DNA of 64,000 bases. Origin: an uncultured Eubacteriales bacterium (GTDB lineage: Bacteria; Acidobacteriota; Aminicenantia; Aminicenantales; Aminicenantaceae). Under the pieces are notes generated by a model. That model was not told the DNA's origin, did not search any database, and saw only the letters and a list, made by a program, of their open reading frames with translations. Made by a program: the position numbers and the translations under genes. The stretch covers positions 35,939 through 99,938 of the forward strand of contig CAYSCW010000004.1 in assembly GCA_964429795.1 (NCBI GenBank), in the 5' to 3' direction. Positions within the stretch are counted from its first letter, which is position 1; each line of letters starts with the position of its first letter. Positions 19,230 through 42,967 of the stretch are shown piece by piece.

Positions 19230-19245
19230 CAGACTGGCTTTATAT

Positions 19246-20716: not shown

Positions 20717-20745
20717 TTGACAGCGGGGAAATCAGGTGATATGTA
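20717..20745 (+). promoter_or_regulatory. Sigma70-like promoter candidate for the downstream hydratase/ADH operon
   Basis: TTGACA (20717-20722), 17 nt, TATGTA (20740-20745), about 60 nt upstream of the ATG at 20806. It lies in a 290-bp divergent intergenic region that also holds an AAAATATCAA direct repeat. Confidence 0.3.
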
Positions 20746-20805
20746 TTACATCTCAACTCCCATCAATCGACATTGATGAAAATCATCCTTTAAAAGAGGA
20801 ACATC

Positions 20806-21585: not shown

Positions 21586-21596
21586 AGGAGGAAGAA

Positions 21597-22695: not shown

Positions 22696-24381
22696 TCAGG
22701 AGACTCTCTTAATGACCACCAGAGTCATGTCGTCCATCTGATCGGTCCCAGAAGTGAATTGCCGCACCTCATCGTGGATTTTATCCAGGAGCTTCTGAGC
22801 GCTTAATTTCGGTTTCTTTTTGATAAGACTGATCAGCCTCTCCTCGCTGAACTCTTCATTCTTTTTATTCCGGCTTTCGGTGATTCCATCTGTAAAGAGA
22901 AGAGCCATATCGCCAGGCTCTATGGTCATTGCATTGATTTCATAGGTGGATAAAGGAAACATTCCCAGGCAGAGGCCACTGCTTTCCAGACGTTCTATCT
23001 TCTCATTCTTCTTCAAGATCAGCGGGGGGTTGTGTCCGGCATTGATAAATCGCATTTCTCCATTCTTCCTGTTCAGTTCACAGAAGAAAAAGGTGATAAA
23101 ATTATTGGGGGCGGAGCTGCGATGGACAAAATTATTGAGCTTTCCGGCCATCTCCTCTAATTTATACAATGGGTGGAGCTCTGAATGGAGGGCTGCTCTC
23201 AGAGAAGCCATGAGGAGGGAAGCACTCACCCCCTTTCCTGAAACATCGGCGATCACAATTCCCAAACGGCAAGGGTCGATATCTATAAAGTCATAATAAT
23301 CCCCTCCCACTTGATAACAGGGGATATTGGAGCCTGCAATCTCAAAATTATCGCAGGAAGGATTCTCTTTGGGCAGAAAGTCTTTCTGGATTTGAGAAGC
23401 CAGGGCGAGTTCTTTCTCCATCTTTTCCTGCTCGATGGCCTTCTCGATAAGCTCAGCATTTTCGATTTTAACAGCAGCCAGATTGGAGAGAAGAGTCAAC
23501 AGCCGCAAATCCTCATCGCTGAATCTCTCAAGACTCATTATCCTGTCTGAATAGATGATTCCGATGATCTCTTTGTTGTTCCAGAGGGGAATACACATCG
23601 CTGAATGGATGTTGGATTTGATGATGCTGTCCATGGCTCTAAAACGGGTGTCTGCTTGAGCGTCAGAAGTGAGTATAGAGGAATGCTTGTCCATGGCCAT
23701 GTCGACAATGCTCTTGCTGACCTGGATTTTCTGGCCCATGAGGCGATCATTATTGATACGAACCACCTTTGGAATCAATTGAGGGGGATTGCCTTCCTTC
23801 AACATTAAAATCCCCCTGTCCATGGGAAGATGCTCACTGATAAGATCCATGATATACTCGAGCAGCTCGGTCAGGGGTTTGTGGAGGATGAGGGCTTGGC
23901 TGACTTTGCTCAAGATGGAATAAGCCTTATTTTCTGACTTGATCCTTTCCAAGTCAAAAGGTGTAGCTGTAGCAGCTTTTATGGTTGTCTCTATATCAGT
24001 TTTTTTCAGGATTTCTTTAACATTGACGATGGTGTTGACATTGACCGAAGAGGAAGGATCGTCCATGACTTCCACATTGGTTGAAATCTCCTTATCGAAG
24101 AAAATCCTGGTGGAGCCGATGAGGATTTCGTCACCCTTATTGATTCGGGTCTCAGCCTGTATTTTTTTTCCGTTGAGAAAGGTCCCATTTTTGCTGGAAT
24201 TGTCCCGAATCGCATATCCAGATTCTATCGTATAGATAAAGACATGATAACCTGAACAGAAGGGATCAGGAATATAGATATCGTTATCGGCAGAACGACC
24301 GATAGAGATCTTCTTTTTTTTCAACGGGAAACGGATGATGTCCCCTTTTTTCGGATAGACGAACAATCGAGGCATGACCAA
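22696..24381 (-). CDS. FHA-GAF-PP2C (SpoIIE/RsbU-type) serine phosphatase
   Basis: N-terminal FHA signature (ISIGRSADNDIYI...SGYH), a central GAF-like region, and C-terminal PP2C motifs (GIVIADVSGKGVSASLLMA, FTDGITE). Confidence 0.75.
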   Translation of the reverse strand: MVMPRLFVYPKKGDIIRFPLKKKKISIGRSADNDIYIPDPFCSGYHVFIYTIESGYAIRDNSSKNGTFLNGKKIQAETRINKGDEILIGSTRIFFDKEISTNVEVMDDPSSSVNVNTIVNVKEILKKTDIETTIKAATATPFDLERIKSENKAYSILSKVSQALILHKPLTELLEYIMDLISEHLPMDRGILMLKEGNPPQLIPKVVRINNDRLMGQKIQVSKSIVDMAMDKHSSILTSDAQADTRFRAMDSIIKSNIHSAMCIPLWNNKEIIGIIYSDRIMSLERFSDEDLRLLTLLSNLAAVKIENAELIEKAIEQEKMEKELALASQIQKDFLPKENPSCDNFEIAGSNIPCYQVGGDYYDFIDIDPCRLGIVIADVSGKGVSASLLMASLRAALHSELHPLYKLEEMAGKLNNFVHRSSAPNNFITFFFCELNRKNGEMRFINAGHNPPLILKKNEKIERLESSGLCLGMFPLSTYEINAMTIEPGDMALLFTDGITESRNKKNEEFSEERLISLIKKKPKLSAQKLLDKIHDEVRQFTSGTDQMDDMTLVVIKRVS

Positions 24382-24419: not shown

Positions 24420-26942
24420 TCAAGATACTCCTGATCTTTCTAGAGTCCTCATATTCTTTTTGCACTTCCTAACTTTATCCTCAAAGGGAATATCGTCGAT
24501 CAAGGGCAAGAGAAATTCCATCATTTCTTTCTTCAGCATGTTATCCAGAAGTTCGATGGAATAGTCGATGGATTTTTTTGTCCCTGCAGTGATGTTCTGG
24601 TACGCCTTGATGACATCTTCTTTAGCATAGACCAGACTCAGAAGTTCAAAAATATGCTTAAGGCAACGCGCTAAATTTTTTTCTAGCTCCTTAGCTAGAG
24701 ACACTTTTTTCTCATCCCCTTTCAAGCCGTCGATTTCTATCAAGATCAGATAGCTTTTCTTTATCATCCGCAGAGTTTCAGGAAGAACAATCTCATCTCG
24801 AAAATGGATATGGGGGTGTTTTGATTTCATCTTGAACATGGCCTCGATAATCTCCGACTCTACATCACCGTCTCTTCTTTTCAGCCCTAAGGAAAGGAGA
24901 TAGGCAGCTTTTTGAGTCCCTGTGTTGGCTAAGATATCAGGGATGGCCTTTCGGACTCGGATGTCTTCATCCTGGTCTCCCAGATAATCTTTTAGTGTCC
25001 CCACGATTTTGTTTCCATATTCAGCCAGAGCCTCACTGGCTATCCTTTGGGTAGAAGGCCTGCGAAGATGAGGAATGATGAGAGGAACAAAATCTCTTGT
25101 CTTCAGTTTTCCAGCGCTCTCCACAGCATATTTGATGACTTCTGGCGATTTATCTCGAAGAAGCTTGTTGAGATTATGAGTAAGAGAGGAGGTTGGTTTC
25201 ATCATACCCAGAACCTTGGCTGCTTCCATCTTGGACACTTCCGCATCCTTGCTTTCCTCATCGGCGATTTTATCGATGTGCTCTTTCATCAACTCCTGGT
25301 AGACATCGAGGGACATGATTTCCTTAACCTGGGCATCGAGATCTTCCTCCTCCAGAACATCATCCATTTCAGGAAGCAAGGCCTCGCCATCCAATTCCAG
25401 AAGGGAATCCATAGAGCCGGCTTTTATTTCATCAGATTTGCCGGAGATTATTCCTTTTAATGCAGGACTTAATTTATCTCTTTTGACTAGGTCAAAAAGA
25501 TTCATAGCATAAAGGACTGAACTCCTTTTTTTGCTTTCCAGAGTGTCAAAAACAAGTTTTGTCATATCGATATCAATCTTTTCTCCGATAAATTTATCCG
25601 CGTCTTCCCATTTTATTCTTAAGTTTCTCTTGACAATACCCACATACTCCTTGGTAATCATGAGATTAAGGCCAATCCATACAATGAGAAAAATTATGGT
25701 GACCAAACTGATTCGGACGACAGATAAATGAAAAACGAAAAGGAACAATAGGATAATGAGAGCTCCAAGACCTTTTGCAAATTTGTTGACAAACATATCG
25801 ATGAAGACCTTGGCTTTATATTTGATGTCAGGAGAAATGGGGATGTAAAGAAGCTCTCTCACTGACTGATTGAGGGAATAGGCCAGACTTTTATCCGCCC
25901 CTTTAATCAAGACTCCCCAGTAAATCAAATAGAGCATGGGGATGAAGAAGATGGCCACAGAACCCACCAATAAGAGAAAAGGGGCAACTAAAAGCGCCGC
26001 GCGGATTCCGAAGTTCTTCAGGATACGGCTGGTGAGAAGGACATGTAGCAAATAGGAAAATACAAGCATTCCAGTAAAAAAAATCCCCAGAAAAGAAGTC
26101 ATAGCATCTTTCTTGACCAAAACCTCCCCATCTACGGCCTCTGTGAAATGCTTTTCAACCACAGAATTGAACTGAAAATCGATCAAAGTGGTCACCACAA
26201 AAGTCGCAATCATGATCCCGCAGAGAAGCAGCAAATAACGATTTTTCCTGATCAACTGTAGGCTTTTGCCGTATCCTACCCTGGTTTTTTTCTTATCTCT
26301 AGTGGGCTGAGTCTCTTCCTCTTTTTCTCCTGGTATGCATTTTGAGATGAAAGTGATAATAACCAGACAAAAGATAAGCATCAGAGGACAAATCAAAAGG
26401 AGGTTTTCTGTTCCGAATTGCATGGCCAACAACGAGGCCAAAAGGGCTCCTGCTACTCCTCCCAAAAGTCCTCCGCTTACCAGAAAGCCAATCAGTCTTT
26501 TTGCCTGCCTTGGGTTATAGATATCGTTAACCAATATCCAGAATTGAGTGACAGATGTGGCTATGAAAATATCTGCCCAAAACCAATAAATTATGGAAAG
26601 CCAATCCCAGTTATATCTGAAAAACATCCAGAACAGCAAAAGACAGACTATAAAAAAAACCAGGCTCAAAGAGATGTAAACACGTCTCTTCATCACATGC
26701 AACAACCTGGAATTTAAAGAAACCACAAAACCGATCAAGACGGCTGTCAAAAGGTAGGCATAAGGGAGTCTGGTGAAAGACAGGCTTTCCAGGAAGAGCG
26801 AAATCTTGACGGGTTTGATGATGTAAACCGAGGAAGTGATGAGGAAAAAATAAATGAACAAGAGAATAGAGGAAGAAACTTCCCCTGCTCTTATGTCAGC
26901 AAAGTAGGATAAAAGCTTTTGGACTCGGTTCTTAGCCATCAA
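24420..26942 (-). CDS. TLC-family (ATP/ADP-translocase-like, TC 2.A.12) transporter fused to a C-terminal HEAT-repeat domain
   Basis: 840 aa. The N-terminal ~430 aa are polytopic and carry the TLC signature block FWILVNDIYNPRQAKRLIGF (compare Tlc FWQFANQITKIAEAKRFY). The C-terminal ~400 aa are soluble with repeated helical HEAT/PBS-lyase-like units. The gene overlaps its paralog by 11 nt. Confidence 0.6.
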   Translation of the reverse strand: MMAKNRVQKLLSYFADIRAGEVSSSILLFIYFFLITSSVYIIKPVKISLFLESLSFTRLPYAYLLTAVLIGFVVSLNSRLLHVMKRRVYISLSLVFFIVCLLLFWMFFRYNWDWLSIIYWFWADIFIATSVTQFWILVNDIYNPRQAKRLIGFLVSGGLLGGVAGALLASLLAMQFGTENLLLICPLMLIFCLVIITFISKCIPGEKEEETQPTRDKKKTRVGYGKSLQLIRKNRYLLLLCGIMIATFVVTTLIDFQFNSVVEKHFTEAVDGEVLVKKDAMTSFLGIFFTGMLVFSYLLHVLLTSRILKNFGIRAALLVAPFLLLVGSVAIFFIPMLYLIYWGVLIKGADKSLAYSLNQSVRELLYIPISPDIKYKAKVFIDMFVNKFAKGLGALIILLFLFVFHLSVVRISLVTIIFLIVWIGLNLMITKEYVGIVKRNLRIKWEDADKFIGEKIDIDMTKLVFDTLESKKRSSVLYAMNLFDLVKRDKLSPALKGIISGKSDEIKAGSMDSLLELDGEALLPEMDDVLEEEDLDAQVKEIMSLDVYQELMKEHIDKIADEESKDAEVSKMEAAKVLGMMKPTSSLTHNLNKLLRDKSPEVIKYAVESAGKLKTRDFVPLIIPHLRRPSTQRIASEALAEYGNKIVGTLKDYLGDQDEDIRVRKAIPDILANTGTQKAAYLLSLGLKRRDGDVESEIIEAMFKMKSKHPHIHFRDEIVLPETLRMIKKSYLILIEIDGLKGDEKKVSLAKELEKNLARCLKHIFELLSLVYAKEDVIKAYQNITAGTKKSIDYSIELLDNMLKKEMMEFLLPLIDDIPFEDKVRKCKKNMRTLERSGVS

Positions 26943-29439
26943 TTTTTTTTAAAAGCGAAGAGGTCTTGAGCAGGCCTCGGCACCTTTTCACTCTTTGTGC
27001 AAAAGGAATATTTTCGATGAGGGGAAGGAGGATGTCTCTAATTTCCTTTTCCAGAGTATTGTCAAGAAGTTCAACAGCATAAGCAGTCGAATCCTTGGTC
27101 CCTTCCTTGATGTTTTGATAGGCCCTGAAAATATCTTCATGCGTGTAGATGAGTCCCAGCAGCTTGAAAATATTGGCCAGAGACTGAGTAAGATCCTGAC
27201 GAGCGGGCTTTTCCGCTTGTTCTTTCTTTTCCTTAGTCAACGCTCGATAAAAATCAATGAGATTTGTACAGTAATTCTTGACTTCTTTGGCAATTTTTCG
27301 CTTGACGATCTCTTTCTGGAATAGAAAATCAGGATTATCCGAGCGGATTCTATCTAAGGCATCGATCAGTTCTGGATCCAGATCATCCTTTTCCTCTGCA
27401 AGTTCCCAGGTGAGGAAGTCGAGCGCTTCCTGGCCTCCAATGCGTGCTACGACTTTGACCAATTCTTTTCTCAACTCTATATCCACCTCAGAATCTCCTA
27501 TATAATCAGAAAGAGTGCCGACGATTTTTTGGCCGTATTTTTCAAGAGCTGTACTGGCATCTTCACGGGTAAGACGGCTGGATAACTTCTGGACTATAGA
27601 AGGAACATAATCTCTCTGCTTTAGCCTGGCTGCACTCTCCACAGCATACTTGCTCACCTCAGGTGATTCTTCATGGAGAAGGTCTTCAAGCGTATGGGTA
27701 AGAGGAGAATGAGAGTCCATCATTCCCAGAGCTTTGGCTACTTCCATTTTGGCGATTTCTGTCTCCTTGCCTTCTCTAGACATGACTTTCTCCACATAAT
27801 CCTTCATGACTTCCTGATAAACATCCAAAGACATGATCTCTTTTATCTCTTTCTTCAAGAATTCTTCACTGATATCATCCTCTGTTTCAGGTATCAGAGT
27901 GGTCTCTTCGGTCTCTAAAAGCACTCCCAATGAGGAGACTCTTATCTCATCAGATTTGTAAGAAATTACTTTTTTCAGCTCAGGAGTCAGTTTGTCCTGT
28001 TTGATCAAGTCGAACAAATGCATGGCATATAAGACAGAACTCCGATTCTTGCTCTCGATGGTGTCAAACACCAATTTCGTGTAATCCACATCCATTCTTT
28101 CTGTTATGAGCTTATCTGCTCGATCCCATCTCTTCTCCAACTTGTTTTTGACTGTACTCACATATTCCCGACTGACCTTAAGGTTGAGGAGAATCCAGAC
28201 AAGAATAAAAAGAACCGAAACAAGGCTAGTAAATCGGATGCCGATGGGCACCAGAACAAGGATCATGAGAATTAAAGCCCCAATGCCCTTGGCAAATCTG
28301 TTGATAAATATATCGATGAATATCTTTGCCTTAGTCTTGAGCTCTGGAGAGACAGGAATGTAGAGTAGCTCCCTAACGGATTGATTGATGGAATAAGAAA
28401 GGCTTTTATCACTCCCCTTAAGAAAGATGGCAAAAACGATACTGGCAAAGACAGCAATCCCTAAGGAGCCGAGAAGTAATAGAAGAGGAAAAAGCAGAAG
28501 AGTCAAACGAATACCATAGCGCTTGATGATGTTGCTAGTCATGAGTAGCTGAAGGAAGAACGCGAAAACCATCAACGCAGCATAAAAATGCCCAAAAAAG
28601 AATGTCAGATTATCCTTTCCAGAGATATTGATATCAATAACTCCTTTGAACTGAAAATCGATAAAAGTAGATACAATCCATGTGATGGTCACCATGGCTG
28701 CCAGCAATTTTAGATAAGAGTCTCGCCTCACTGTATTGAAACAATCCTTAAAACCCACTTTAAGTGGTTCTCCCCCTTTGCTTATATCTCTATTTTTGCC
28801 CGCTTTCACCTTATCAAATGTAGATTGTCGTTTCCTGTGCAACACAAAGATATAATGAACGATGAAAATACAGACAAAAAACATTCCGCAAGCTATGAGA
28901 AGAAGATGATTGGAAACTTTTGACTTAGCTAAAAGTCCAGCCGTTTCATATCCGACGATGCCTCCTAAAATTCCCCCACTCCCCATGAATCCGATCATCC
29001 GCTTAACCTCTCTTGGATTAAACACATCGTTAACAGTGATCCAAAATTGAGTCATCAGAACCACCAACATATTGACCCAGATCCAAAAAGCAAGAGGTAT
29101 CCATTCCCATTCCTTAGGGAAAATCCACCAAAAGAGCAGGGAGGTCAGGATGAAAAAGACAAGGCTGAGGGTAAGTAAAAGATGTCTTTGGATTTTGGCC
29201 TGGAGTTTAGAATGAAAAGCAACCACAAAACCTATGATTATAGCTGTAAGCAAGTAGGCAACAGGTAATTTTTTATAGGACAAAACATCCAAATAGAAGG
29301 CATCTCTCAAGGGTTTGACAATGGAGAAAGGAGCTGCGATAAGAAAAAAATAAAGAAAAAGAAGAAGAGCTATAAGCTCTTCACCAGGATTCAAATCGAC
29401 GATACGCGATAAAACTTTATACAGGCGATTTTTGGCCAT
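26932..29439 (-). CDS. TLC-family transporter fused to a C-terminal HEAT-repeat domain (paralog of 24420-26942)
   Basis: 835 aa with the same architecture; TLC block FWITVNDVFNPREVKRMIGF. The two genes are tandem and translationally coupled. Confidence 0.6.
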   Translation of the reverse strand: MAKNRLYKVLSRIVDLNPGEELIALLLFLYFFLIAAPFSIVKPLRDAFYLDVLSYKKLPVAYLLTAIIIGFVVAFHSKLQAKIQRHLLLTLSLVFFILTSLLFWWIFPKEWEWIPLAFWIWVNMLVVLMTQFWITVNDVFNPREVKRMIGFMGSGGILGGIVGYETAGLLAKSKVSNHLLLIACGMFFVCIFIVHYIFVLHRKRQSTFDKVKAGKNRDISKGGEPLKVGFKDCFNTVRRDSYLKLLAAMVTITWIVSTFIDFQFKGVIDINISGKDNLTFFFGHFYAALMVFAFFLQLLMTSNIIKRYGIRLTLLLFPLLLLLGSLGIAVFASIVFAIFLKGSDKSLSYSINQSVRELLYIPVSPELKTKAKIFIDIFINRFAKGIGALILMILVLVPIGIRFTSLVSVLFILVWILLNLKVSREYVSTVKNKLEKRWDRADKLITERMDVDYTKLVFDTIESKNRSSVLYAMHLFDLIKQDKLTPELKKVISYKSDEIRVSSLGVLLETEETTLIPETEDDISEEFLKKEIKEIMSLDVYQEVMKDYVEKVMSREGKETEIAKMEVAKALGMMDSHSPLTHTLEDLLHEESPEVSKYAVESAARLKQRDYVPSIVQKLSSRLTREDASTALEKYGQKIVGTLSDYIGDSEVDIELRKELVKVVARIGGQEALDFLTWELAEEKDDLDPELIDALDRIRSDNPDFLFQKEIVKRKIAKEVKNYCTNLIDFYRALTKEKKEQAEKPARQDLTQSLANIFKLLGLIYTHEDIFRAYQNIKEGTKDSTAYAVELLDNTLEKEIRDILLPLIENIPFAQRVKRCRGLLKTSSLLKKIDG

Positions 29440-29469: not shown

Positions 29470-29817
29470 TTACTCTTTAAAAAAGCTCTCCAAAGCCATC
29501 TTTTCATCATCGAATATTTCTAAGACTTTGGTGAGCATGGTGACTTGGAAAACAAGATAGAGTTTCTTGGATATCTTGGCGATTTTCAGTTTCCCTCCCA
29601 AGTTATGCGTGGATATATAACTGGCTAAGATCTCTCCTACGCCAAAACTATCGATGAAATCAACATTCTGAAAATTGAGAAGGATGTTGCGCTTTCCAGA
29701 ATCCAATTGATCTTTGACTAGCTGATGGAGTGTGATATCAGTGATATCAGACCTTCGGATTTCTCCTTCGATGTCAAAAATGACGATATCATTCTTTTCT
29801 CTTGTGTTTATGACCAT
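29470..29817 (-). CDS. STAS-domain anti-sigma-factor antagonist (SpoIIAA/RsbV-like)
   Basis: 115 aa; the STAS fold has a conserved phosphorylatable Ser region (FIDSFGVGEI). It lies 30 nt upstream of the TLC-HEAT genes on the same strand. Confidence 0.7.
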   Translation of the reverse strand: MVINTREKNDIVIFDIEGEIRRSDITDITLHQLVKDQLDSGKRNILLNFQNVDFIDSFGVGEILASYISTHNLGGKLKIAKISKKLYLVFQVTMLTKVLEIFDDEKMALESFFKE

Positions 29818-30069: not shown

Positions 30070-31215
30070 ATGAGGGCTCAGGAATCGTTAAAAAAAGGAA
30101 ACAAGGTTTCCATGAAAAACATCACAGGAAAGAATCCGACGAGAAAAATTAAATCCTCTCTTATCTTTACCCTGCTCATCTTCCTCCTTTTTTCCTGCCT
30201 GTACGCAGGCAAAATCCAATGTGTTTGGACGGGAGTCGAAAAAATCATTGCTGTGGGAGATATCCATGGCGATTACAGCAATTTCCTGAAAATCTTAAAG
30301 GGAGTGGGACTCATCGATGAAGCTCTTCATTGGTCAGGCGGCAAAACCCATTTTGTCCAAACTGGAGATATTATGGACAGAGGCCCTGACGCTCGAAAAG
30401 TCTTTGACTTGCTGATAAAACTGGAGAAGGACGCTGAAAAAGCGGGAGGCAAGGTCCACGTTCTTCTTGGCAACCATGAGGAGATGAATATCACTGGCAT
30501 ATCCTTCGATTATCCCGGATATGTCACGGTGGAGCAATTTGTCTCTTTCTTGCCTGGCAGTTATAAAAAAAAGGAAGAAAAAGAATTCCAAGAACAGTCA
30601 GGCAAAGAGAATCTTAGTGGCTCGCATTCGGATCTTTCCTCGAATAATTCCTTAAGAGCGAAATGGGAAAATCTCCTCAAGACCGACTTGAGTGCTCGGA
30701 AGGAATATATCATTTTTTTCAACAAAAATTATGGTAAGTGGTTGCTTAAACACAATGCGGTCATCAAAATCAACGATGTCATATTCGTCCATGGAGGGAT
30801 CAGCAAAAAATTCTCAAAATGGAAACTGGAGGATATAAACGAGCAGTTGCGGATAGAGCTCTCCTTTCTGCGCAGGGCAGCCATCAATTCATCGCCTTCA
30901 AAAATTACCTTCACTCCCCAAATTGTTTACAAAAGCGAAGGGCCTCTCTGGTATCGAGGTTTAGCCACCATGAATGAGGCAATTTTCGAGGCAGAGGTTG
31001 ATAAAACCTTGACTAATCTGGGAGCAAAATACATGGTTATTGCTCATACACCGCGAATGGGCAGCCCAGTTATGGCAGAGGAGTATTTAAGACGTTTTCA
31101 CGGAAAAGTCTGGATTATCGACACGGGAATTTCAGAATTTTATGGAGGATTTTTGAGTGCTTTAATAATCAAGAATGGAGAATTTTCTCTTTGGGCGGTG
31201 GGTCATGAACGATAA
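30070..31215 (+). CDS. PPP-family metallophosphatase (PP1/PP2A/ApaH-like) with an N-terminal signal anchor
   Basis: All PPP signature motifs are present: GDIHGD, GDIMDRGPD, GNHE, HGG and a GH motif. The N-terminus has a basic stretch followed by one hydrophobic helix (KIKSSLIFTLLIFLLFSCLYA), implying extracytoplasmic or membrane-anchored topology. Confidence 0.75.
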   Translation: MRAQESLKKGNKVSMKNITGKNPTRKIKSSLIFTLLIFLLFSCLYAGKIQCVWTGVEKIIAVGDIHGDYSNFLKILKGVGLIDEALHWSGGKTHFVQTGDIMDRGPDARKVFDLLIKLEKDAEKAGGKVHVLLGNHEEMNITGISFDYPGYVTVEQFVSFLPGSYKKKEEKEFQEQSGKENLSGSHSDLSSNNSLRAKWENLLKTDLSARKEYIIFFNKNYGKWLLKHNAVIKINDVIFVHGGISKKFSKWKLEDINEQLRIELSFLRRAAINSSPSKITFTPQIVYKSEGPLWYRGLATMNEAIFEAEVDKTLTNLGAKYMVIAHTPRMGSPVMAEEYLRRFHGKVWIIDTGISEFYGGFLSALIIKNGEFSLWAVGHER

Positions 31216-32005
31216 AAATTATGTCCTTCTCATTTTCATCTGCCTCACTCTAGCCAATTGGTGCCTGAGCTTATCTCAATCGCCAGATCGAGGGAATTGG
31301 GACCAAGATAAACTGGAGAATTATCTGAGAACAGCTGAGATCATTTCTGTGGAAAAAGACACAGAAGCGGGAAGGACCGCACCGTGGAGAATCACACTCA
31401 ACGACGGAATAACTCAACGCCAAGGCCTCTTCAAGTACATCAATCGCTCCCGACCTTCCCTTCTTCCTGATAGTTATAAATACGAGATTGCCGCTTATGA
31501 ACTGGACAAACTCCTCGAGCTCAAAATCGTACCTCCCGTTGTGGAAAGAGAAATTGAAGGGACAACAGGTTCTCTTCAACTTTATCTAGAAGGCTGCATA
31601 AGAGAAGCCGAGAGAAAAAGGAAAAAAATAGATCCACCAGATCCTGTATCCTTTCAGAACATGCTGGAAGTGATCAATGTTTTTGAGAATTTGGTCCTTG
31701 AAGAGGATTGTTTTGATGCCAATGACATCCTGGTTGATCTTGATGAGTGGAAAGCGTATCGAGTCGACTTTTCCATGGCCTTCTCCCCTCTGCCTGAGAT
31801 CATTTCTGGATGCAAAATCAACAAGTGTTCTCGTAAATTCTACAACAACCTCCTCCAATTGGATGACCTTCAAGTCAAGAATAAACTCAAGCCATTTCTC
31901 AATGACCCAGAGATTGAAGCTCTGCTTCAACGCAAAAAAATCATCATCGAAAAGATCGGGCAATTGATTAAAGAAAAGGGACAAGATGCTGTCCTCTTCA
32001 ACTGA
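31205..32005 (+). CDS. Secreted minimal kinase-like protein, paralog 1 (RIO/Kdo/WaaP-like fold; catalytic motifs degenerate)
   Basis: Signal peptide MNDKNYVLLIFICLTLANWCLSLSQS. It keeps the paralog-family blocks K...YEIAAYELDKLLELKIVPPVVE, but has EEDCFDAND in place of the DRHxxN loop and VDFS in place of IDHS. Its ATG overlaps the phosphatase stop by 11 nt. Confidence 0.4.
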   Translation: MNDKNYVLLIFICLTLANWCLSLSQSPDRGNWDQDKLENYLRTAEIISVEKDTEAGRTAPWRITLNDGITQRQGLFKYINRSRPSLLPDSYKYEIAAYELDKLLELKIVPPVVEREIEGTTGSLQLYLEGCIREAERKRKKIDPPDPVSFQNMLEVINVFENLVLEEDCFDANDILVDLDEWKAYRVDFSMAFSPLPEIISGCKINKCSRKFYNNLLQLDDLQVKNKLKPFLNDPEIEALLQRKKIIIEKIGQLIKEKGQDAVLFN

Positions 32006-32173
32006 AAAGATTGAAATATCAAAGCTTCAGCAATAAATTGGGGAAATCAGTTAAAATCAAATTTCAAGGTTGTTTAGACCTGTTACAGCCAAATCTGCCA
32101 ATCGAACCCAGATAATAAAAGCAGAAAAAAGCCAAGAAGGAGGGATTCGGTAAAAACCGAAAACAATGAGAAA

Positions 32174-33547
32174 ATGAGAGGAAACGAAAAAGAATCTTCT
32201 GGCCTAGTCTATCGCTTTTTCCGGCTCTTTACAGTAGTCCATCCTGGTGAAGGGCTGACAGTTTTTCTCTTGACTCTTAATATTTTTTTGATCCTGACGG
32301 CTTATTCGATATTAAAACCAGTCAGAAAAGCTTTAATCTTAACAGGACAAACCGCCGAAATCGAAGCCTATCTTTTTGGAGTTATGGCTATAGTACTTAT
32401 CTTCGTCATAAAAATATTCAGCTACCTTTCTGCTAAAGTCCCCCGTCAATTATTGATCACCTGGGTTACCCTCTTTTTTATCTTGAATCTAGCCATTTTT
32501 TATGTCTTACATCTTGCGGGAACCCCTCTAGGTACGTTGAGTGTCATCTTTTACATATGGGTTGGGATATACAACGTTTTTCTCATTGCTCAATTCTGGG
32601 GCTTTTCCAACGATATCTACACAGAGGAAGAAGGAAAAAGACTATTCGTATTGATCATGCTTGGACAAAACCTGGGAGCTGTCATCGGCAGCAAGATCCC
32701 TTCCTTACTGGTAAAACCAAAAGGACCATTAAGCCCCTTTCATTTTCTACTCCTCACTGGAGCCATCCTGGTCGCCTGCATTGTATTAACCCTTATTATC
32801 CACAAAAGAGAGATGGAAAGTGTAAAAAATAAACAGGCCCATCAAAAGGCAAAAGAAAAACATAAGAAAAAATTGAAGGAGAAGCCTTTGCCAAGGGGAG
32901 GCGGTTTTCGTTTGGTGTTTAAAAGTAGATATCTTCTCTTCATCGCCTTGGTTATCTTGGTGCTGAATTACGTCAATACAAATGGTGAATACATCAAATC
33001 CAAAGTATGGGATCGCACCGCTGAGCAGGCTAAGGAAACCGAAAAGATTAAAGGTTCAGAGGCGGCAGAGGCTGAATTTCTGACCAAATTAGATTCTGAC
33101 TTCAATTTTTTGGTTAATCTCTTTGCCCTGTTCATTCAACTCTTTCTGGTCTCGCGTATATTCAAGTGGTTCGGAGTTAAAGGAGCACTCCTCTTCCTCC
33201 CATTCATTTCCATTGGAGGTTATTTTTTCATTGCTTTAGGAGCCTCATTTATCCGGGTTAAATGGGCTAAGATCTTTGAAAACAGCACAGATTACTCCCT
33301 AATGAACACAACTCGAGGCGCCCTCTTCCTCATAACATCAAGAGAAGCAAAATACAAAGCCAAGGCAGCCATCGATACTTTTTTCGTGAGAACAGGGGAT
33401 TTATTACATAGCCTGACCGTTCTCCTTGGCACCACCTACCTCGCTTTTAGCCTGGAAAGTTTCGCCAAACTCAATGTGGGCATAGCTGTAGTCTGGATAA
33501 TCCTCTGTTTATTGGTTATAAGAGAACACAAGAGGTTATCAGCTTAA
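32174..33547 (+). CDS. TLC-family (ATP/ADP-translocase-like) transporter without a HEAT extension
   Basis: 457 aa, about 12 TM; the signature block IAQFWGFSNDIYTEEEGKRLFVLIMLGQNLG matches Rickettsia/Chlamydia Tlc ([28 protein letters not shown]). Confidence 0.7.
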   Translation: MRGNEKESSGLVYRFFRLFTVVHPGEGLTVFLLTLNIFLILTAYSILKPVRKALILTGQTAEIEAYLFGVMAIVLIFVIKIFSYLSAKVPRQLLITWVTLFFILNLAIFYVLHLAGTPLGTLSVIFYIWVGIYNVFLIAQFWGFSNDIYTEEEGKRLFVLIMLGQNLGAVIGSKIPSLLVKPKGPLSPFHFLLLTGAILVACIVLTLIIHKREMESVKNKQAHQKAKEKHKKKLKEKPLPRGGGFRLVFKSRYLLFIALVILVLNYVNTNGEYIKSKVWDRTAEQAKETEKIKGSEAAEAEFLTKLDSDFNFLVNLFALFIQLFLVSRIFKWFGVKGALLFLPFISIGGYFFIALGASFIRVKWAKIFENSTDYSLMNTTRGALFLITSREAKYKAKAAIDTFFVRTGDLLHSLTVLLGTTYLAFSLESFAKLNVGIAVVWIILCLLVIREHKRLSA

Positions 33548-33708
33548 AGAACAGAATACCAAGGGGGATAACTTATTATACTAATAGATCTTCGATCTTT
33601 ATCAAAGAATAATGATGGATGATAAGGAATTTTTAATCAGAAAAATCAAGAGTTAACTCGACTTTTATTCTCCTTAGCGTTTCCCTGAATGTCAAACGAA
33701 GAGCGAGA

Positions 33709-34542
33709 TCATCGCAAGTCTTTCACTTTGATTATTCCTCCTGAATCCTGGGCAATATACAGATAGCCTTCTTCATCCTTGGTGATCCCCTCCTGATTAT
33801 CTCCGAGAAATGCATACTCCTTAACTAACTTTCCCTCAAGGGTGATTTCCACCAGGATATTATCCGCATCACTGACAATATTCAACAGGCCTGTCTTCTG
33901 ATCATAGTACATGGCTGAAGGATCATCCATAGCAAATGGTAAAACCCGGATAATTCTTGCTTCTGCGATCTCAGATTCGCTTGTCCTGAGAGGAACCAGA
34001 ACCTCAATTATGCACGGAGGATCCCACTGATTGCCCATGTAGAATGTTCCACCTTCAGGATGGTTCTCATCGGGAACAAAAGCAACGGACTCAATCCCGT
34101 TATCATGACCTTCTTTCTGTTTTTGAAGAAAATTGGGATCGTTCCCAAATGTTCTATTAATAGGGAATCGCCGGGTAACTTTTTTTTCCTCTGGATCAAA
34201 CTCAAGGAGAACATCTTCTCCTTCAATGATTATGTAAAGAAGACCAGATTGAGGAGCGACTGTAATGCCTTCCAAATCACCGGGAATTTTTACTCGCGAC
34301 ACAGGACTTCCATCTGTCTCTATTTCGAAGATCTCCCCTTCATCACTGACCACAAAGAGAGTTTTCCTGAGAGGGTGGAAACAAATATCAGAAGGTTCAA
34401 CAATACTTTGTTGATCTATATTTCCTCCAAATCCAACGGGTCCCAACCATTCGTAGGGGAACCGGATAGTTGGTGAATGTTTTTCCGAGGAACAGAAAAG
34501 TGTGAATATCATGATGCTCAATACAAAGACTTTTATTCTCAT
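33709..34542 (-). CDS. Secreted beta-propeller protein (SdiA-regulated/YjiK-like or phytase-like)
   Basis: Signal peptide, then repeated D/EGI(T/A) blade motifs (DLEGITVAP, NGIESVAFVPDE, QEGITKDEEGYLYIAQDSGG). Confidence 0.35.
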   Translation of the reverse strand: MRIKVFVLSIMIFTLFCSSEKHSPTIRFPYEWLGPVGFGGNIDQQSIVEPSDICFHPLRKTLFVVSDEGEIFEIETDGSPVSRVKIPGDLEGITVAPQSGLLYIIIEGEDVLLEFDPEEKKVTRRFPINRTFGNDPNFLQKQKEGHDNGIESVAFVPDENHPEGGTFYMGNQWDPPCIIEVLVPLRTSESEIAEARIIRVLPFAMDDPSAMYYDQKTGLLNIVSDADNILVEITLEGKLVKEYAFLGDNQEGITKDEEGYLYIAQDSGGIIKVKDLR

Positions 34543-34723
34543 TCCTCTGACTCCTTCTTACTTACATATTCTATAGAGAATCAAAACCTGGAACACAGCC
34601 ACAGCTATAGTCTTCATTTTCTCATCAACCTAATCTATTTTATTTTATACAAAAAAGCGCATATATGATAATACTCTCTCCACGGCTCTAAAAGAATCTC
34701 CGCGATAGGAGTGAGGGCGGGGG

Positions 34724-34859
34724 ATCGTCAGCACGCAGATTTTTCCCAGCGAGGAAAATCAGCTCTCGTTCGGGCTTCGGAGGGACAGGAACCGCCGCCT
34801 CATAACCTAACTGGACGAAATATCTTCACTTTTCACGGAGATGGAGATGTTATCCACGG
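34724..34859 (+). repeat. Mosaic leader repeat, copy D (modules M1, M2, M3 in direct order) upstream of kinase-like paralog 2
   Basis: M1 at 34724-34755 (ATCGTCAGCACGCAGATTTTTCCCAGCGAGGA), M2 at 34772-34799 (GGGCTTCGGAGGGACAGGAACCGCCGCC), M3 at 34833-34859 (TCACGGAGATGGAGATGTTATCCACGG). Modules recur at 37176-37271, 38352-38490, 48365-48489, 58227-58323 and 1803-1825. Confidence 0.7.
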
Positions 34860-34940
34860 GTGTTTTTGATTTGCCTTTCAAGGTAAGTGTCAATATAATA
34901 ACTGCGACAAAACTCGGGTTTTTCGAACGGGAAGAAAAAA

Positions 34941-35768
34941 ATGAGAAGAAAAATCATCTTCATCGCTGTTCTCATCCTTTTCCTTGCCCAAAACTATAAC
35001 ATAATCGCCCAATTTACCCCAGAAGAACTGGGAGAAAGAGCCAACTGGGAAGAATTTCTCAAGACGGCAGAAATCATCAAGTACCAAGAGATAGGCGAAG
35101 GAGTAACTAAGCCCATAAGACTCTACTTGAAAAAAGGAGATACAGAAGCCAGCGGGGTCTGGAAAAACCCAAAGGGCATCCAGGAAGGCTTCCTTGAGGG
35201 CTGGGAGTATGAGATCGCCGCTTATCAAATGGATAAGATTCTGGAGCTGAATATGGTTCCCCCCACAGTGGAGAGAGAATTCGAGGGAAAAAAGGGTTCT
35301 CTTCAGCTTTGGGTTGAGGCTGAATTCAGTCTCCTCGATATCATGGAAGAAAAAATTGCAATGCCCGCTTCTGGATCAGAATCCGACAATATCCAGAAGA
35401 CCAAATATCTAACCAGAGCTTTCGACAGTCTGATCGCCAACGAAGACAGAACCCAGCAGAATATTTTTTACACAAAGGACTGGCGGGTGATTCTCATCGA
35501 TCATTCCCGTTCCTTTCGTTCTTCCAAGAAATTCACCAAACAGCTTATGTTCGGGAGAACTGGCATCGAAGGGAACAAACCTTTCAGACAGCTGCCGTGC
35601 GCATTCGTAGAAAAAATAAAGGCACTGGATTTTGAAATCATCAGAGAAGCTGTTGGCCCTTATCTCCAAGATAAAGAGATAAAAGCCATCCTTGCTCGCA
35701 AAAAGCTTATATTGGCAGAAATTGATGAAATGATAAGAGAAAAAGGCGAAGAAAATGTTTTGTATTGA
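34941..35768 (+). CDS. Secreted minimal kinase-like protein, paralog 2 (RIO/Kdo/WaaP-like motifs intact)
   Basis: Signal peptide MRRKIIFIAVLILFLAQNYNIIAQ; a putative beta3 Lys (VWK) and alphaC Glu in EYEIAAYQMDKILELNMVPPTVE (RIO-like E..F..L..L...GI.VP.P block); catalytic-loop-like LIANEDRTQQN; DFG-like ILIDHSRSF 18 residues later. Confidence 0.45.
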   Translation: MRRKIIFIAVLILFLAQNYNIIAQFTPEELGERANWEEFLKTAEIIKYQEIGEGVTKPIRLYLKKGDTEASGVWKNPKGIQEGFLEGWEYEIAAYQMDKILELNMVPPTVEREFEGKKGSLQLWVEAEFSLLDIMEEKIAMPASGSESDNIQKTKYLTRAFDSLIANEDRTQQNIFYTKDWRVILIDHSRSFRSSKKFTKQLMFGRTGIEGNKPFRQLPCAFVEKIKALDFEIIREAVGPYLQDKEIKAILARKKLILAEIDEMIREKGEENVLY

Positions 35769-35828
35769 TCATTCACATTATCTACATTTGATGGAAATAA
35801 AGTTTATCAATAATAAGGAAGGTAAAGG

Positions 35829-36641
35829 GTGAAAAGAAAAATTACTTCTCTTTTCTTTCTTGTTATCTTTTTGGGTTTCCTTTTTCAGTTGTTAGCCCAA
35901 TTCACTGCAGAAGAAATAGAAGAGAGAGCAAAATGGGAAGAGTTCCTGGAGACGGCAGAAATCACAGGCTCCGATCAGCCATGGGTAGAACGGGAGGCCG
36001 TGACCAATCCCTGGAGGTTGACCATTGAAAAAGATGGGATTGTGAAACAGGCAATATGGAAGAACGTGGAAGGCAGGGTGAAGGGGTATCTCGATAACTG
36101 GAGATGGGAGATCGCAGCTTACCGCTTGGACAAATATTTGGGCTTACACATGGTTCCTCCCACTGTAGAAAAAAGATTTCGAGGGGATCGTGGATCCTGT
36201 CAATTACTGGTCGATTACTGGATCAGCCTTAAGGATAAATATGAACAAAACATAAAAACTCCCTCTTATAAAATTTTCAACTGGAATAGAGCTCTCTACC
36301 TGCAGCGGGCTTTCGACAATCTGATCGCCAATGAAGACCGTCATCAGAATCAGTACCTCATAACCGAAGATTGGCGGATGATTCTTATTGATCATTCTCG
36401 GTCTTTCCGCACATCCAAAAAATTCACCAAAGATCTCATCTATGATGCAAACTACAAAGAAGGTCCGAGGTTGATGAAGGAGCTCCCCAGTTCTCTTGTA
36501 GAGAAGCTGAAAAGCCTCAATCATGAGGTGATAAGAGAAGTTGCAGGAGAATATTTGACAGAAAAGGAAATCGAGGCTATCCTTATCAGAAGAGATTTGA
36601 TACTCAAGGAAATCGACAAGATCAAAACGGTTCTCTACTGA
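35829..36641 (+). CDS. Secreted minimal kinase-like protein, paralog 3 (tandem to paralog 2)
   Basis: GTG start with an AGGAAGG RBS; signal peptide MKRKITSLFFLVIFLGFLFQLLAQ; blocks WEIAAYRLDKYLGLHMVPPTVE, LIANEDRHQNQYLI and ILIDHSRSFRTSKKFTK shared with paralog 2. Confidence 0.45.
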   Translation: MKRKITSLFFLVIFLGFLFQLLAQFTAEEIEERAKWEEFLETAEITGSDQPWVEREAVTNPWRLTIEKDGIVKQAIWKNVEGRVKGYLDNWRWEIAAYRLDKYLGLHMVPPTVEKRFRGDRGSCQLLVDYWISLKDKYEQNIKTPSYKIFNWNRALYLQRAFDNLIANEDRHQNQYLITEDWRMILIDHSRSFRTSKKFTKDLIYDANYKEGPRLMKELPSSLVEKLKSLNHEVIREVAGEYLTEKEIEAILIRRDLILKEIDKIKTVLY

Positions 36642-36644
36642 TTC

Positions 36645-37130
36645 CTAAATTTCAGTCTTCTTGATGGTCTTATACATGATCAGCACGTTCTGATTGTCTT
36701 CGCGTCTGTAATCAAATCCGTCCATAAGTTTTCGAACAAGAAAGATACCCAAGCCGCCTGTTTTTGCATCCTTGATCATTTCTTCTATGTCGGGGGCCTT
36801 CGACTGGGTTGGATCAAAGGGAACTCCATTATCCCTGATTTCAAAGAAGATCCTTCCCTCTTCCTGCCATATCTTGAGGAAGATAGTGCCCCTCTTCCTG
36901 CGATAGGCATATCTTACGATATTGGAACATATCTCTAAGAGGGAAAGCTCAATGATGTAATAGGCCTTTTCAGAAAGATTTAAATCCTGGAGGGCATCTC
37001 GAAGAAAGGTTCTAGCTTTATCCAGTTCTGCAAAGTCGCTCAGAATCTTAAACTTTTTCATTTCCGTTCTGTATGGTTTCTTTTTTCCCTTTCTGCTTTC
37101 CTTGATTGAAGAGCCTCCCAATTTTCTCAT
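36645..37130 (-). CDS. Anti-sigma-factor serine kinase (RsbW/SpoIIAB-like, GHKL ATPase)
   Basis: GHKL motifs EIRDNGVPFDP and GGLGIFLVRKLMD; 161 aa as listed. A second in-frame start MKKFKILSDF at 37061 would give the canonical ~138-aa size. Confidence 0.65.
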   Translation of the reverse strand: MRKLGGSSIKESRKGKKKPYRTEMKKFKILSDFAELDKARTFLRDALQDLNLSEKAYYIIELSLLEICSNIVRYAYRRKRGTIFLKIWQEEGRIFFEIRDNGVPFDPTQSKAPDIEEMIKDAKTGGLGIFLVRKLMDGFDYRREDNQNVLIMYKTIKKTEI

Positions 37131-37425: not shown

Positions 37426-38118
37426 ATGCACCACATACATGAAGAGACAATCATCCAAGAGTGCGTAGCAAAGTTAAAAAGCGGAAAACTCGCACCCTGG
37501 AAAGTGGAAGAGGAAATCCAGAAAGAGTATGAAATCCCTTCTCCAAATAATTTCAAGATCGCCGCAGCATGCAGGCAGAAATTTATCGAAGAAGAGACAG
37601 GCGAAAAATTCGTCTTTATCTCCATCTCCTCCCAGCCTTACAAAGAACGGTACATCTGTGAGAATGACCATCTTGCCTGGGAACTCGACATTTCAGACAC
37701 GGATCTTACCTGTTCGCTATGCGGAACCGAACTGAAGCCTTTAGGACAATATGCTCCGCTGCTTGCCAACTATGTGGGAGGAGTAGAAGATTACTATTCT
37801 TATGGAGGGCGATTAAAGGTCAACGGCGACTTGGAGACAGAGTTGACAAGCCTTCTTGTCTATGGAACAGGAATGGGCCCGATGGGTGTGACCAGAGGAT
37901 GTTATATCATCAATAAATTTGGCGGGGCTGAGGTCAAGGTTTCACAGTTCGGCAGAGCAGCTCGTTCGCTTGGCTTGATCTTCAAGAACGAAGAGATGCG
38001 AAGGAAAGCCATATCGACAATCCAACTCTTCTTTCCCGAAGCCAAAGCCCGAATGCAGGAGAGAACAAGGAAGATATTATCTATAGGGTGGAGCTGCCTA
38101 ATATTGAAGCGGGAGTGA
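37426..38118 (+). CDS. Hypothetical protein; possible frameshift with a 63-codon ORF continuing in another frame at 38088-38279
   Basis: 230-aa ORF with a CxxC pair. It overlaps by 31 nt a short ORF whose translation (GREALRIMGIKTAKEFAASVASQVLAGEFNLALEI) looks like a conserved C-terminal helix rather than an independent gene. Confidence 0.3.
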   Translation: MHHIHEETIIQECVAKLKSGKLAPWKVEEEIQKEYEIPSPNNFKIAAACRQKFIEEETGEKFVFISISSQPYKERYICENDHLAWELDISDTDLTCSLCGTELKPLGQYAPLLANYVGGVEDYYSYGGRLKVNGDLETELTSLLVYGTGMGPMGVTRGCYIINKFGGAEVKVSQFGRAARSLGLIFKNEEMRRKAISTIQLFFPEAKARMQERTRKILSIGWSCLILKRE

Positions 38119-38620: not shown

Positions 38621-39019
38621 ATGAAAAAAATTATCTTCACTTTGACTTTCATGGTTTTTCTTCTGACACTTTTCAGCGCCACCTCTTTCTCTCAAGATGT
38701 CGACCTGAGTGGAAAATGGGTAGGAACGACAGAGGTTCCCGAACAAGGAGCGGATGAAGTCACCCTTACACTCCAGAAAGACAACGGAGAATACTTGGGA
38801 ACAATTTCCGATTCATTGGGAATGGCCCAAGACGAGGAATGTAAGGATATTGAATTTAAAGAGGGAACTCTTACTTTCTATTTCACTATTTTCGACGGAA
38901 ACGAATATATGACAGTTTACATGAGCCTGACTGTTGAAGAGGGTAAGATGAGCGGATACTGGGAAATCGAAGATGGGGCCTCTGGTTCTATTGAGCTGGA
39001 AAAGAAAGGAAACAGGTAA
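38621..39019 (+). CDS. Small secreted hypothetical protein
   Basis: 132 aa; signal peptide MKKIIFTLTFMVFLLTLFSATSFSQ; GAGAGACAAAATG RBS region. No recognisable catalytic motif. Confidence 0.45.
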   Translation: MKKIIFTLTFMVFLLTLFSATSFSQDVDLSGKWVGTTEVPEQGADEVTLTLQKDNGEYLGTISDSLGMAQDEECKDIEFKEGTLTFYFTIFDGNEYMTVYMSLTVEEGKMSGYWEIEDGASGSIELEKKGNR

Positions 39020-39137: not shown

Positions 39138-39920
39138 TCAACCCTCTAATCTCCGGAATTGCTCGATGACGAACCCAGAAATCAAATCCAGCATCTTTTC
39201 AAAGCCATCTAAATTTGTATACCTGTGATCAGCCCCCTGGATAATTTCTAACCGGCAATTCTTTATGAGAGCAGATGCTCTCTGGCTTTGGCGAAGGGGA
39301 ACCGTTTCATCTTCACTCCCGTGAACGATCAAGGTAGGGACCTTGATTTTCTTACAACAGGCGTAGCCGTTGACTCTCTCTGCATCCTCGAAAAAGGAAT
39401 AACTCAATCCGAGTTCTTCTCCATCTGGAGTGAATACAGATAGAACCCCCTTATCCTTCCAGCTTTTTATGATTTTTTCATCGTGGCCAGCCACCAGTTT
39501 TCCCATGTAATCGGAAACAGGAGATTTCAAGGCTAAGAAAAGAATATCTCTCGTCTTGGAAACAGCTATCAGGCTGGCCATTCCCCCAAAGCTCGAACCA
39601 ACCAGGCCTATTTCGACATACCTTAACCCCTTCAAGAATTTGAGGGCACTGAGAACATCGTCGGCCGCTTCAGAGATGGTTATCTCCTCAAACTTGCCCT
39701 CACTTTCCCCGTGGCCAAAGAAATCAAACCGGAAGGTGGAGATTTGACTATTGTTTAAAATTTCCTCTAGCCGGACGTTTGTCCTGCTCTCTTTGCTTGA
39801 GGAAAATCCATGACACAAAATAGTCACGCGTCCTTTATTGCGAGCACTGGGCTCTGAGAGAATTCCGCTAAGCCTGTGACCTCTGCTGCTTTTAAAGAAG
39901 ACCTTATTTTCCATGTCCAA
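39138..39920 (-). CDS. Alpha/beta hydrolase (dienelactone-hydrolase / S9 peptidase-like)
   Basis: GxSxG nucleophile elbow (GSSFGG) and HGxxD regions; 260 aa. Confidence 0.65.
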   Translation of the reverse strand: MDMENKVFFKSSRGHRLSGILSEPSARNKGRVTILCHGFSSSKESRTNVRLEEILNNSQISTFRFDFFGHGESEGKFEEITISEAADDVLSALKFLKGLRYVEIGLVGSSFGGMASLIAVSKTRDILFLALKSPVSDYMGKLVAGHDEKIIKSWKDKGVLSVFTPDGEELGLSYSFFEDAERVNGYACCKKIKVPTLIVHGSEDETVPLRQSQRASALIKNCRLEIIQGADHRYTNLDGFEKMLDLISGFVIEQFRRLEG

Positions 39921-39955
39921 GGATAAGAAAGAAAATATTAGGGTTATTCTTTTGA

Positions 39956-40750: not shown

Positions 40751-40752
40751 TG

Positions 40753-41907: not shown

Positions 41908-42000
41908 GGCTTACTCCTTTCCAGAACAAAACACCTCATCGGGACGAGATGTCTTGTGTGCATATTCCCTAAAATCTCAGGATAACTGACGAGGTATGTG

Positions 42001-42852: not shown

Positions 42853-42967
42853 TTTACTTCCTCCCTATTTATAAAATTGAGGACAAAAAATTTGCTTGCA
42901 TCTTTTGTGCATCAATTGGATTGAACTGACTCTCCAGAAAAAAGGACGAAAAAGCTCTCCCTGTGCT

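Follow-up and report, generated by a model that had tools for sequence, protein, structure and literature searches.

A gene cluster encoding three kinase-like paralogs

We analysed a 64,000-nucleotide stretch of DNA from an uncultured bacterium of the Aminicenantaceae (contig CAYSCW010000004.1; hereafter the window), in which three related open reading frames encode kinase-like proteins that we term KinA, KinB and KinC (types A, B and C). They cluster with genes for a putatively exported protein phosphatase and for three transporters of the ATP/ADP type (Table 1). An earlier reading of this DNA, referred to here as the original prediction, had placed the three frames at these positions and had described three shared motif blocks. 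Both the frames and the blocks are confirmed, including the spacing of 16 residues between K75 and E91 and of 18 residues between D169 and D187. The blocks are not a product of chance, since database searches returned 5,697 relatives of KinA at E ≤ 1e-3 and 603 relatives of KinC, and the motif residues are invariant in A- and B-type orthologues. The named relatives come nearly all from metagenome-assembled genomes (MAGs) of Aminicenantes, and all of them are annotated as 'hypothetical', none with a Pfam domain. Additionally, an exhaustive search of 1.84 billion cluster representatives retrieved 5,034 matches at E ≤ 1e-3 and 843 at E ≤ 1e-30, and at 50% identity the kinase-like family amounts to about 5,000 clusters.

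KinA shares 51% identity with KinB and 35% with KinC. The genes for KinA and KinB are adjacent, in this order and on one strand, in 62 of 64 loci. The GTG start of KinB is preceded by a ribosome-binding site, AAGGAAGG; for KinC, a second open ATG lies upstream at 31175, and the orthologues begin at MNDK.

Table 1 Features of the gene cluster, in window coordinates.
Feature	Position	Strand	Description
KinA (A)	34941..35768	+	275 aa; predicted exported, minimal Fam20-like kinase-fold protein of the apparently catalytically intact type
KinB (B)	35829..36641	+	270 aa, GTG start; second paralog predicted to be catalytically intact, in tandem with KinA
KinC (C)	31205..32005	+	266 aa; conserved paralog resembling a pseudokinase, in translational coupling with the phosphatase gene
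Protein phosphatase	30070..31215	+	Putatively exported Shelph-type PPP-family protein phosphatase (metallophosphoesterase); predicted signal peptide
TLC/NTT-family nucleotide transporter (TLC-457)	32174..33547	+	457 aa; Pfam TLC 69.6 bits (cutoff 21)
NTT-HEAT fusion transporter	26932..29439	-	835 aa; Pfam MFS_1, TLC 54.9 bits, HEAT_2
NTT-HEAT fusion transporter, second copy	24420..26942	-	840 aa; Pfam MFS_1, TLC 57.8 bits, HEAT_2
STAS-domain protein (anti-sigma antagonist type)	29470..29817	-	Pfam STAS; first gene of the transporter operon
RsbW-like GHKL serine kinase / anti-sigma factor	36645..37130	-	Pfam HATPase_c_2 98.7 bits
FHA-GAF-PP2C (SpoIIE-type) phosphatase	22696..24381	-	Pfam FHA, GAF, SpoIIE; last gene of the transporter operon
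Putatively exported SdiA-regulated/phytase-like beta-propeller	33709..34542	-	Pfam SdiA-regulated 59.9 bits, Phytase-like; N-terminal hydrophobic segment; facultative member

The kinase-like family is homologous to Fam20

Pfam matches of the three paralogs were all sub-threshold and fell into one branch of the kinase-like superfamily, namely HipA_2, Fam20C and PI3_PI4_kinase. For Fam20C (PF06702), KinA scored 17.6 and KinB 16.9 bits, below the gathering cutoff of 26.8. We give the profile results for the 126 shorter sequences among the 150 best family representatives, of which 19 match PF06702 at E ≤ 0.01. KinA alone, compared with the sequences of the Protein Data Bank (PDB), already picks out FAM20A and Fam20B through nearly identical motifs such as FDFLIGNxDRH. 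A narrower profile built from 93 sequences matched the Fam20 chains with E values of 4e-5 to 6e-3, and the broad profile of the 126 representatives matched FAM20A at 7.9e-16, DrFam20C at 9.2e-11, Fam20B at 2.5e-10, hFam20C at 9.6e-10 and ceFam20 at 6e-7. The homology of the family to Fam20A/B/C is thus statistically significant in profile searches, and the proteins contain the kinase-core fold of Fam20, with only 228 of the 351-418 Fam20 residues aligning. The next family after Fam20 in the broad profile search is PI4KIIb at 2e-3, an E value about 12-13 orders weaker than that of FAM20A (8e-16) and about four orders weaker than that of ceFam20. We regard the assignment of the fold and of the homology to Fam20 as close to certain. 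Judged by their sequences, KinA and KinB are minimal homologues (about 250 aa in predicted mature form) of the Fam20 secretory-pathway kinases with a full active site.

The best curated bacterial match to KinA is the SCO1664 family (NCBIfam TIGR03843), with an E value of 3.5e-12 over residues 89-259. The three paralogs score 46.2, 41.9 and 24.9 bits against its cutoff of 172.4 and are not members. The PI3/PI4-kinase domain PF00454 neither reached its gathering score nor proved to be the closest relative. The same search results bear on the original prediction, which had described minimal kinase-like proteins of the RIO/Kdo/WaaP type: the kinase fold and motifs stand through the homology to Fam20, and the type does not, as RIO, Kdo and WaaP kinases are the closest relatives neither in sequence nor in structure. 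Exported RIO/Kdo/WaaP-type kinases acting on lipopolysaccharide (LPS) sugars can therefore be virtually discounted. They are refuted as a family assignment, and an LPS-sugar substrate falls under the glycan alternative weighed below.

One representative, P0241 (671 aa), carries tandem kinase-like domains at residues 58-314 and 382-623 whose summed Pfam Fam20C score of 29.4 lies above the gathering cutoff. The β3 Lys is replaced in it by His and the αC Glu by Gln (SQIAAY), with an intact catalytic loop.

Active-site residues are conserved in types A and B and altered in type C

In HMMER alignments, K75 of KinA matches Lys133 of hydra Fam20, which binds ATP (numbering checked against PMC5865150); E91 corresponds to the αC Glu, D169 to Asp299, the catalytic base, in the motif N-x-D-R-H, and D187 to the metal-binding Asp of the Fam20 motif LDN. 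The acidic residue 86 (D/E), five before the αC Glu, aligns without gaps with Gln258 of FAM20A in the broad profile. That position is occupied in Fam20C by the catalytic Mn-binding Glu, and the Gln there makes FAM20A a pseudokinase (PMC5865150, PMC7948968). The mapping of residue 86 is less secure than the others, because in the narrower-profile alignment against Fam20B E86 sits three residues off. By alignment, the β3 Lys, this acidic residue, the DRH Asp and the metal-binding Asp of Fam20 are all present, and they are conserved in 45-46 of 46 A-type and in 65 of 65 B-type orthologues. The wider set of A-type residues K75, E91, D162, N167, D169, R170, N174, D187, H188 and S189 is kept in 46/46 orthologues, and so are K78, E94, D163, N168, D170-R-H and D188-H-S in all 65 of the B type. 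In a predicted model of KinA, K75 would sit at a strand end, E91 in the next helix, D169 in the loop after a long helix (145-164) and D187 right after a strand (183-185); these modelled positions match the expectation for a kinase.

Across the whole family, the β3 position varies between Lys, Arg, His and Gln, and atypical kinase folds are known to run non-kinase reactions (PMC7948968). Both points could speak for another ATP-dependent chemistry, such as AMPylation as in SelO or glutamylation as in SidJ, or for purely structural pseudoenzymes. We consider this very unlikely, since the active site of types A and B aligns residue for residue with the Fam20 phosphotransferases and since the co-evolving partner, described below, is a phosphatase, in keeping with phosphate as the transferred group.

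The C type shows a different pattern. K75 is kept in 44/46 orthologues and D187 in 46/46, E91 in 28/46 and D169 in only 11/46, and N174 is replaced by Ile. KinC had been described as a degenerate copy that has lost its DRH and IDHS residues. The window copy in fact keeps Asp at both positions (EEDC, VDFS), and it is most of its orthologues that lose the catalytic-loop Asp. Nor is KinC degenerate: its 603 relatives and a conserved residue pattern of its own rule out a decaying or dying gene copy. To judge from these residues, KinC represents a conserved subfamily with impaired catalysis and is a pseudokinase as FAM20A is.

Linkage and fusion to a phosphatase and adjacency to nucleotide transporters

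The phosphatase gene carries the Shelph motifs GDxHG, GDxxDRG, GNHE, HGG and (I/L/V)D(S/T)G, with the Shewanella phosphatase PPI as closest relative; its product is most similar to this protein-tyrosine phosphatase and to PP5, PP1 and calcineurin. Its stop codon overlaps the ATG of KinC by 11 nt, and phosphatase and KinC genes are adjacent in 45 of 48 loci. A TLC gene is present in 47 of the 48 phosphatase-bearing loci.

The synteny set comprised 37 Aminicenantes loci of at least 18 kb with 10 kb flanks and an A-type identity of 56-89%. The order that recurs among them is Shelph-type phosphatase, C, TLC, A, B, two TLC-HEAT genes and a partner-switching set. The phosphatase is found in 31 of these loci, C in 28, B in 27, TLC-457 in 23, the TLC-HEAT gene of the 26932-29439 type in 26 and the second TLC-HEAT copy in 17, the latter often being lost to the flank limit. 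Similarly, the STAS gene is present in 28, the RsbW-like gene in 30, the propeller in 19 and the FHA-GAF-PP2C gene, usually past the flank limit, in 11. In the window, STAS, the two TLC-HEAT transporters and the FHA-GAF-PP2C phosphatase form a minus-strand operon, and STAS, RsbW-type kinase and PP2C are co-encoded as in partner-switching systems. All three window transporters lie above the PF03219 gathering score (69.6, 54.9 and 57.8 against 21), and the closest solved structure to TLC-457 is ADP,ATP carrier protein 1 (E 5e-5).

Phosphatase and kinase-like domain also occur as one protein. Many of the 150 best family representatives are 600-900 aa long; among ten long ones scanned, eight combine an N-terminal Metallophos domain with a C-terminal kinase-like domain and one has tandem kinase-like domains. 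The N-termini of 12 long representatives were inspected, and signal peptides are predicted on 11 of them; the exception, P0290, has no Metallophos match. With the fusion protein of a Myxococcota MAG as query, we retrieved 3,951 proteins at E ≤ 1e-10, annotated only as 'metallophosphoesterase', from Myxococcota, 'Deltaproteobacteria', Terriglobia, Thermoanaerobaculia and other Acidobacteriota. Among the three paralogs, KinC gives the highest score against the fused kinase-like domain (99-130 bits), followed by KinA and then KinB, so that KinC looks like the split counterpart of this domain. The catalytic loop (DRNxGN … IDH[ST]R) is intact in most fused domains, which carry Arg in place of the β3 Lys; a few resemble the C type.

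We examined eleven genomic contexts of such fusion genes. In eight of them a TLC gene (L083, L085, L091) or a TLC-HEAT gene (L084, L086, L087, L089, L090) lies directly beside the fusion gene on the same strand, in some cases overlapping it, and the flanks are otherwise unrelated. The count corresponds to roughly six of nine independent neighbourhoods, because L089 and L090, and likewise L085 and L091, share wider synteny. The adjacent transporters of L083-L087 belong to the same subfamily as the window TLC-HEAT genes (phmmer 1e-37 to 1e-105); those of L089-L091 were identified by their Pfam TLC annotation. TLC genes are rare in free-living bacteria, and their adjacency comes in addition to the gene fusion; the two findings strongly support a joint action of phosphatase, kinase-like domain and transporter. 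We consider this functional linkage very probable.

Several observations concern individual contexts. In a Thermoanaerobaculia MAG (L086, 4675-8001), a small cNMP-binding protein is encoded between the TLC-HEAT and fusion genes with overlapping boundaries, an arrangement that matches the NTT-HEAT-cNBD association reported previously (PMC5381601). In the TLC-less Myxococcota contexts L081 (7930-9888) and L092 (2616-4610), an unannotated protein of 652-664 aa is encoded directly upstream of the fusion; the 652 aa protein of L081 has only an N-terminal hydrophobic segment and looks like a candidate for export.

The kinase-like proteins carry signal-like N-termini

Export was called by a rule-based reading of the sequence. 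Signal-like N-termini were found in 88 of 93 homologues, with a basic start, a hydrophobic core of 12-15 residues and no further membrane segment, in agreement with the signal peptides proposed originally for all three proteins. They end in a junction of A/G/S followed by Gln (…IIA|QF, …LLA|QF). The proteins thus differ from cytoplasmic RIO/Kdo/WaaP-type kinases, which would be without an export signal, and their export is, on these features, probable. KinA and KinB contain a single Cys each.

In the signal regions of the C type (31205-31290 in the window, and orthologues), a conserved Cys lies near the end of the hydrophobic core (…NWC…, …SWC…) and does not match a canonical lipobox; KinC could be a lipoprotein, a signal-anchored protein or a substrate of signal peptidase I. 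Mature A- and B-type proteins are predicted to begin with the conserved Gln of the junction A/G/S|QF. In L085 (11260-12045) and L091 (8408-9190) the gene right after the TLC gene encodes a glutaminyl-cyclase-like protein (PF05096), and such a gene lies nearby in L081 (17327-18289); these enzymes may cap the exported proteins with pyroglutamate.

Proposed extracytoplasmic phosphorylation and competing explanations

We propose that the proteins of the cluster phosphorylate and dephosphorylate a substrate outside the cytoplasm and that the transporters supply the ATP, a reading to which we assign a probability of roughly 55%. It builds on layers that are supported directly, namely fold, homology, residue conservation, gene linkage and gene fusion. 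KinA and KinB would reach the periplasm or the cell surface by Sec export, and inner-membrane NTT antiporters would swap cytoplasmic ATP for periplasmic ADP and thereby feed the exported kinases; for ATP export by the NTT transporters we see even odds. The substrate that KinA and KinB would then phosphorylate would lie in the envelope or periplasm and most likely be a protein, and the Shelph phosphatase would remove the phosphate that they place. By analogy with FAM20A and its partner FAM20C, KinC could be a non-catalytic partner of the phosphatase, an activator of KinA and KinB, or both. A further possibility, for Aminicenantes, is that the set of STAS, RsbW-like and PP2C proteins gates the HEAT-tailed transporters from the cytoplasmic side.

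A protein substrate is suggested by the type of the phosphatase, and we favour it with some reserve, at a little less than even odds. The substrate of Fam20B is xylose, that of POMK mannose and that of PI4KII a lipid head group. Since Fam20B and PI4KII match the family nearly as well, the same exported module with the same ATP supply could instead modify an envelope glycan or lipid. We consider this rather unlikely, because the linked and often fused phosphatase resembles protein phosphatases most closely and the cluster contains no conserved gene for a glycosyltransferase or for lipid biosynthesis among the 37 loci.

Several points weigh against extracytoplasmic phosphorylation as we propose it. 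The argument is computational throughout; the source genomes of all loci compared are MAGs; and export was called from sequence rules and not by a trained predictor, while we also infer kinase activity, substrate, direction of nucleotide transport and regulatory roles. Concerning the transporters, functionally characterised NTTs come from parasites, symbionts and organelles and take up nucleotides or related metabolites (PMC5381601). The window TLC proteins score 52-68 bits against the cutoff of 387 of NCBIfam TIGR00769, so their substrate is uncertain given this distance from characterised NTTs. ATP export by NTTs is plausible on thermodynamic grounds only, and porins of the outer membrane could be a route by which ATP leaks away. 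The ancestral fused domain may not be a kinase, given its β3 Arg and the C type without a catalytic loop. Furthermore, three of the eleven fusion contexts (L081, L088 and L092, two of them Myxococcota) have no adjoining transporter, and a phmmer search for a hidden one, made in L081 and L088, found none. Neither a phosphatase nor a transporter gene lies near several lone A-type paralogs (L020, L025, L038, L060). Finally, the synteny among Aminicenantes could partly reflect shared ancestry; against this, the adjacency spans phyla and the flanking genes turn over, as two checked flank genes of the window, those for a Zn-dependent alcohol dehydrogenase and an alpha/beta hydrolase, recur in none and three of the 37 loci.

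The uptake by characterised NTTs, together with the Arg that the fused domains carry for the β3 Lys, would also fit nucleotide scavenging, in which the NTTs import, the phosphoesterase trims extracellular nucleotides or dinucleoside polyphosphates, and the kinase-like domains bind or present nucleotides. Yet no catalytic residue is missing from KinA and KinB, and the phosphatase does not belong to the nucleotidase type; we judge scavenging distinctly unlikely. Extending the proposal of extracytoplasmic phosphorylation beyond the window, we offer only tentatively, and with less confidence than the protein substrate, that diderms of several phyla possess a dedicated system of this kind. It would combine ATP export by NTT or NTT-HEAT transporters, partner-switching or cNMP-binding control, Fam20-like kinases and a coupled Shelph phosphatase, and the family would be a prokaryotic sister or ancestor of animal Fam20/Fam198.

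Flanking genes and additional paralogs

The cluster lies within a region of genes for acyl-CoA metabolism. On one side of it (16365-22625), the window encodes an ADP-forming acetyl-CoA synthetase-like protein, a BcrAD/BadFG activator with a 2-hydroxyacyl-CoA dehydratase, an enoyl-CoA hydratase and the Zn-dependent alcohol dehydrogenase. On the other (39138-44152) lie genes for the alpha/beta hydrolase, an enoyl-CoA hydratase, an acyl-CoA dehydrogenase, a 3-hydroxyacyl-CoA dehydrogenase and a thiolase. Two further frames are conserved only in the closest relative, L001: a Cys-rich protein of 230 aa (37426-38118; …CENDHLAWELDISDTDLTCSLCG…) with no Pfam or NCBIfam match, and a protein of 132 aa (38621-39019), exported-looking by its sequence, with no Pfam match. 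A promoter scan was uninformative, with 26 sites against 26.0 expected. Terminator-like sites numbered 31 against 13.7 expected from shuffles and were not used to define transcription units.

Extra A-type paralogs in four loci (L020, L025, L038 and L060; about 4500-10820) are the last gene of a same-strand run of nuoG-like, nuoH and nuoI genes, a metallo-beta-lactamase-fold gene and a SAM (S-adenosylmethionine) methyltransferase gene, which gives no clue to a substrate. In L025 and L038, two sulfatase genes follow the extra paralog.

Comparison with known systems and implications

Fam20, with the Golgi casein kinase Fam20C, the xylosylkinase Fam20B and the pseudokinase Fam20A, has been described as an animal family (PMC7948968), whereas the present family is bacterial. 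Its members are also far smaller, about 250 aa in predicted mature form compared with a Fam20 core of 350-420 aa, and with this length and a single Cys they have no counterpart of the N-terminal segment, the N-lobe insertion domain and the disulfides of Fam20. The coupling to PPP phosphatase and NTT genes is a feature of the present family and not of Fam20. PI4KII is a cytoplasmic, palmitoylated lipid kinase without an export signal. Among bacterial proteins, the SCO1664 family is uncharacterised, actinobacterial and PI3/4K-like, and it is the closest curated bacterial family, below whose cutoff the present proteins fall; no functional characterisation of it was found in the literature searched. 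CtkA (JHP0940), a secreted proinflammatory kinase of Helicobacter pylori, is less similar to the present family than Fam20 is, and we know of no phosphatase or NTT partners of CtkA.

The partners likewise have known relatives. The phosphatase resembles the Shelphs (SLPs) and the cold-active protein-tyrosine phosphatase PPI of Shewanella, and differs in being, as predicted, exported and overlapping with or fused to a Fam20-like domain; the paper on Shelphs does not describe such a fusion or overlap (PMC535813). NTT-HEAT fusions with the same TLC and HEAT architecture are a known, widespread clade in free-living bacteria, sometimes beside a cNMP-binding protein, and their function was left open (Major et al. 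2017, PMC5381601). Adjacency to genes for exported Fam20-like proteins and phosphatases, found here, is not mentioned there. Reviews of Fam20 confine the family to animals and name no bacterial relatives (PMC7948968, PMC5865150), and a 2026 preprint surveying bacterial kinase-like domains is silent on Fam20 and nucleotide transporters. Literature searches on bacterial homologues of Fam20, on Fam20 together with metallophosphoesterases, on periplasmic kinases and on SCO1664 turned up no earlier account of the family or the module. What is new here is therefore the genomic context, a cluster of phosphatase, kinase-like and transporter genes, and the Fam20-like fold in a bacterial, predicted exported and minimal form with new partners. 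If the ATP-supply model is true, the system as a whole would be categorically new.

The periplasm has been called devoid of ATP, which is given as the reason why kinase domains are cytoplasmic (PMC11032199). A large, putatively exported family with intact kinase active sites challenges this view, and the question is directly testable with three or four recombinant proteins. If our reading is true, it would provide a concrete hypothesis for the function of NTT-HEAT proteins in free-living bacteria, and thousands of entries that now read only 'metallophosphoesterase' or 'hypothetical protein' could be assigned a domain. The pairing of a pseudokinase with an active kinase would have arisen in the present branch, outside animals, too, and the Fam20 lineage, so far called animal-specific, would reach into bacteria.

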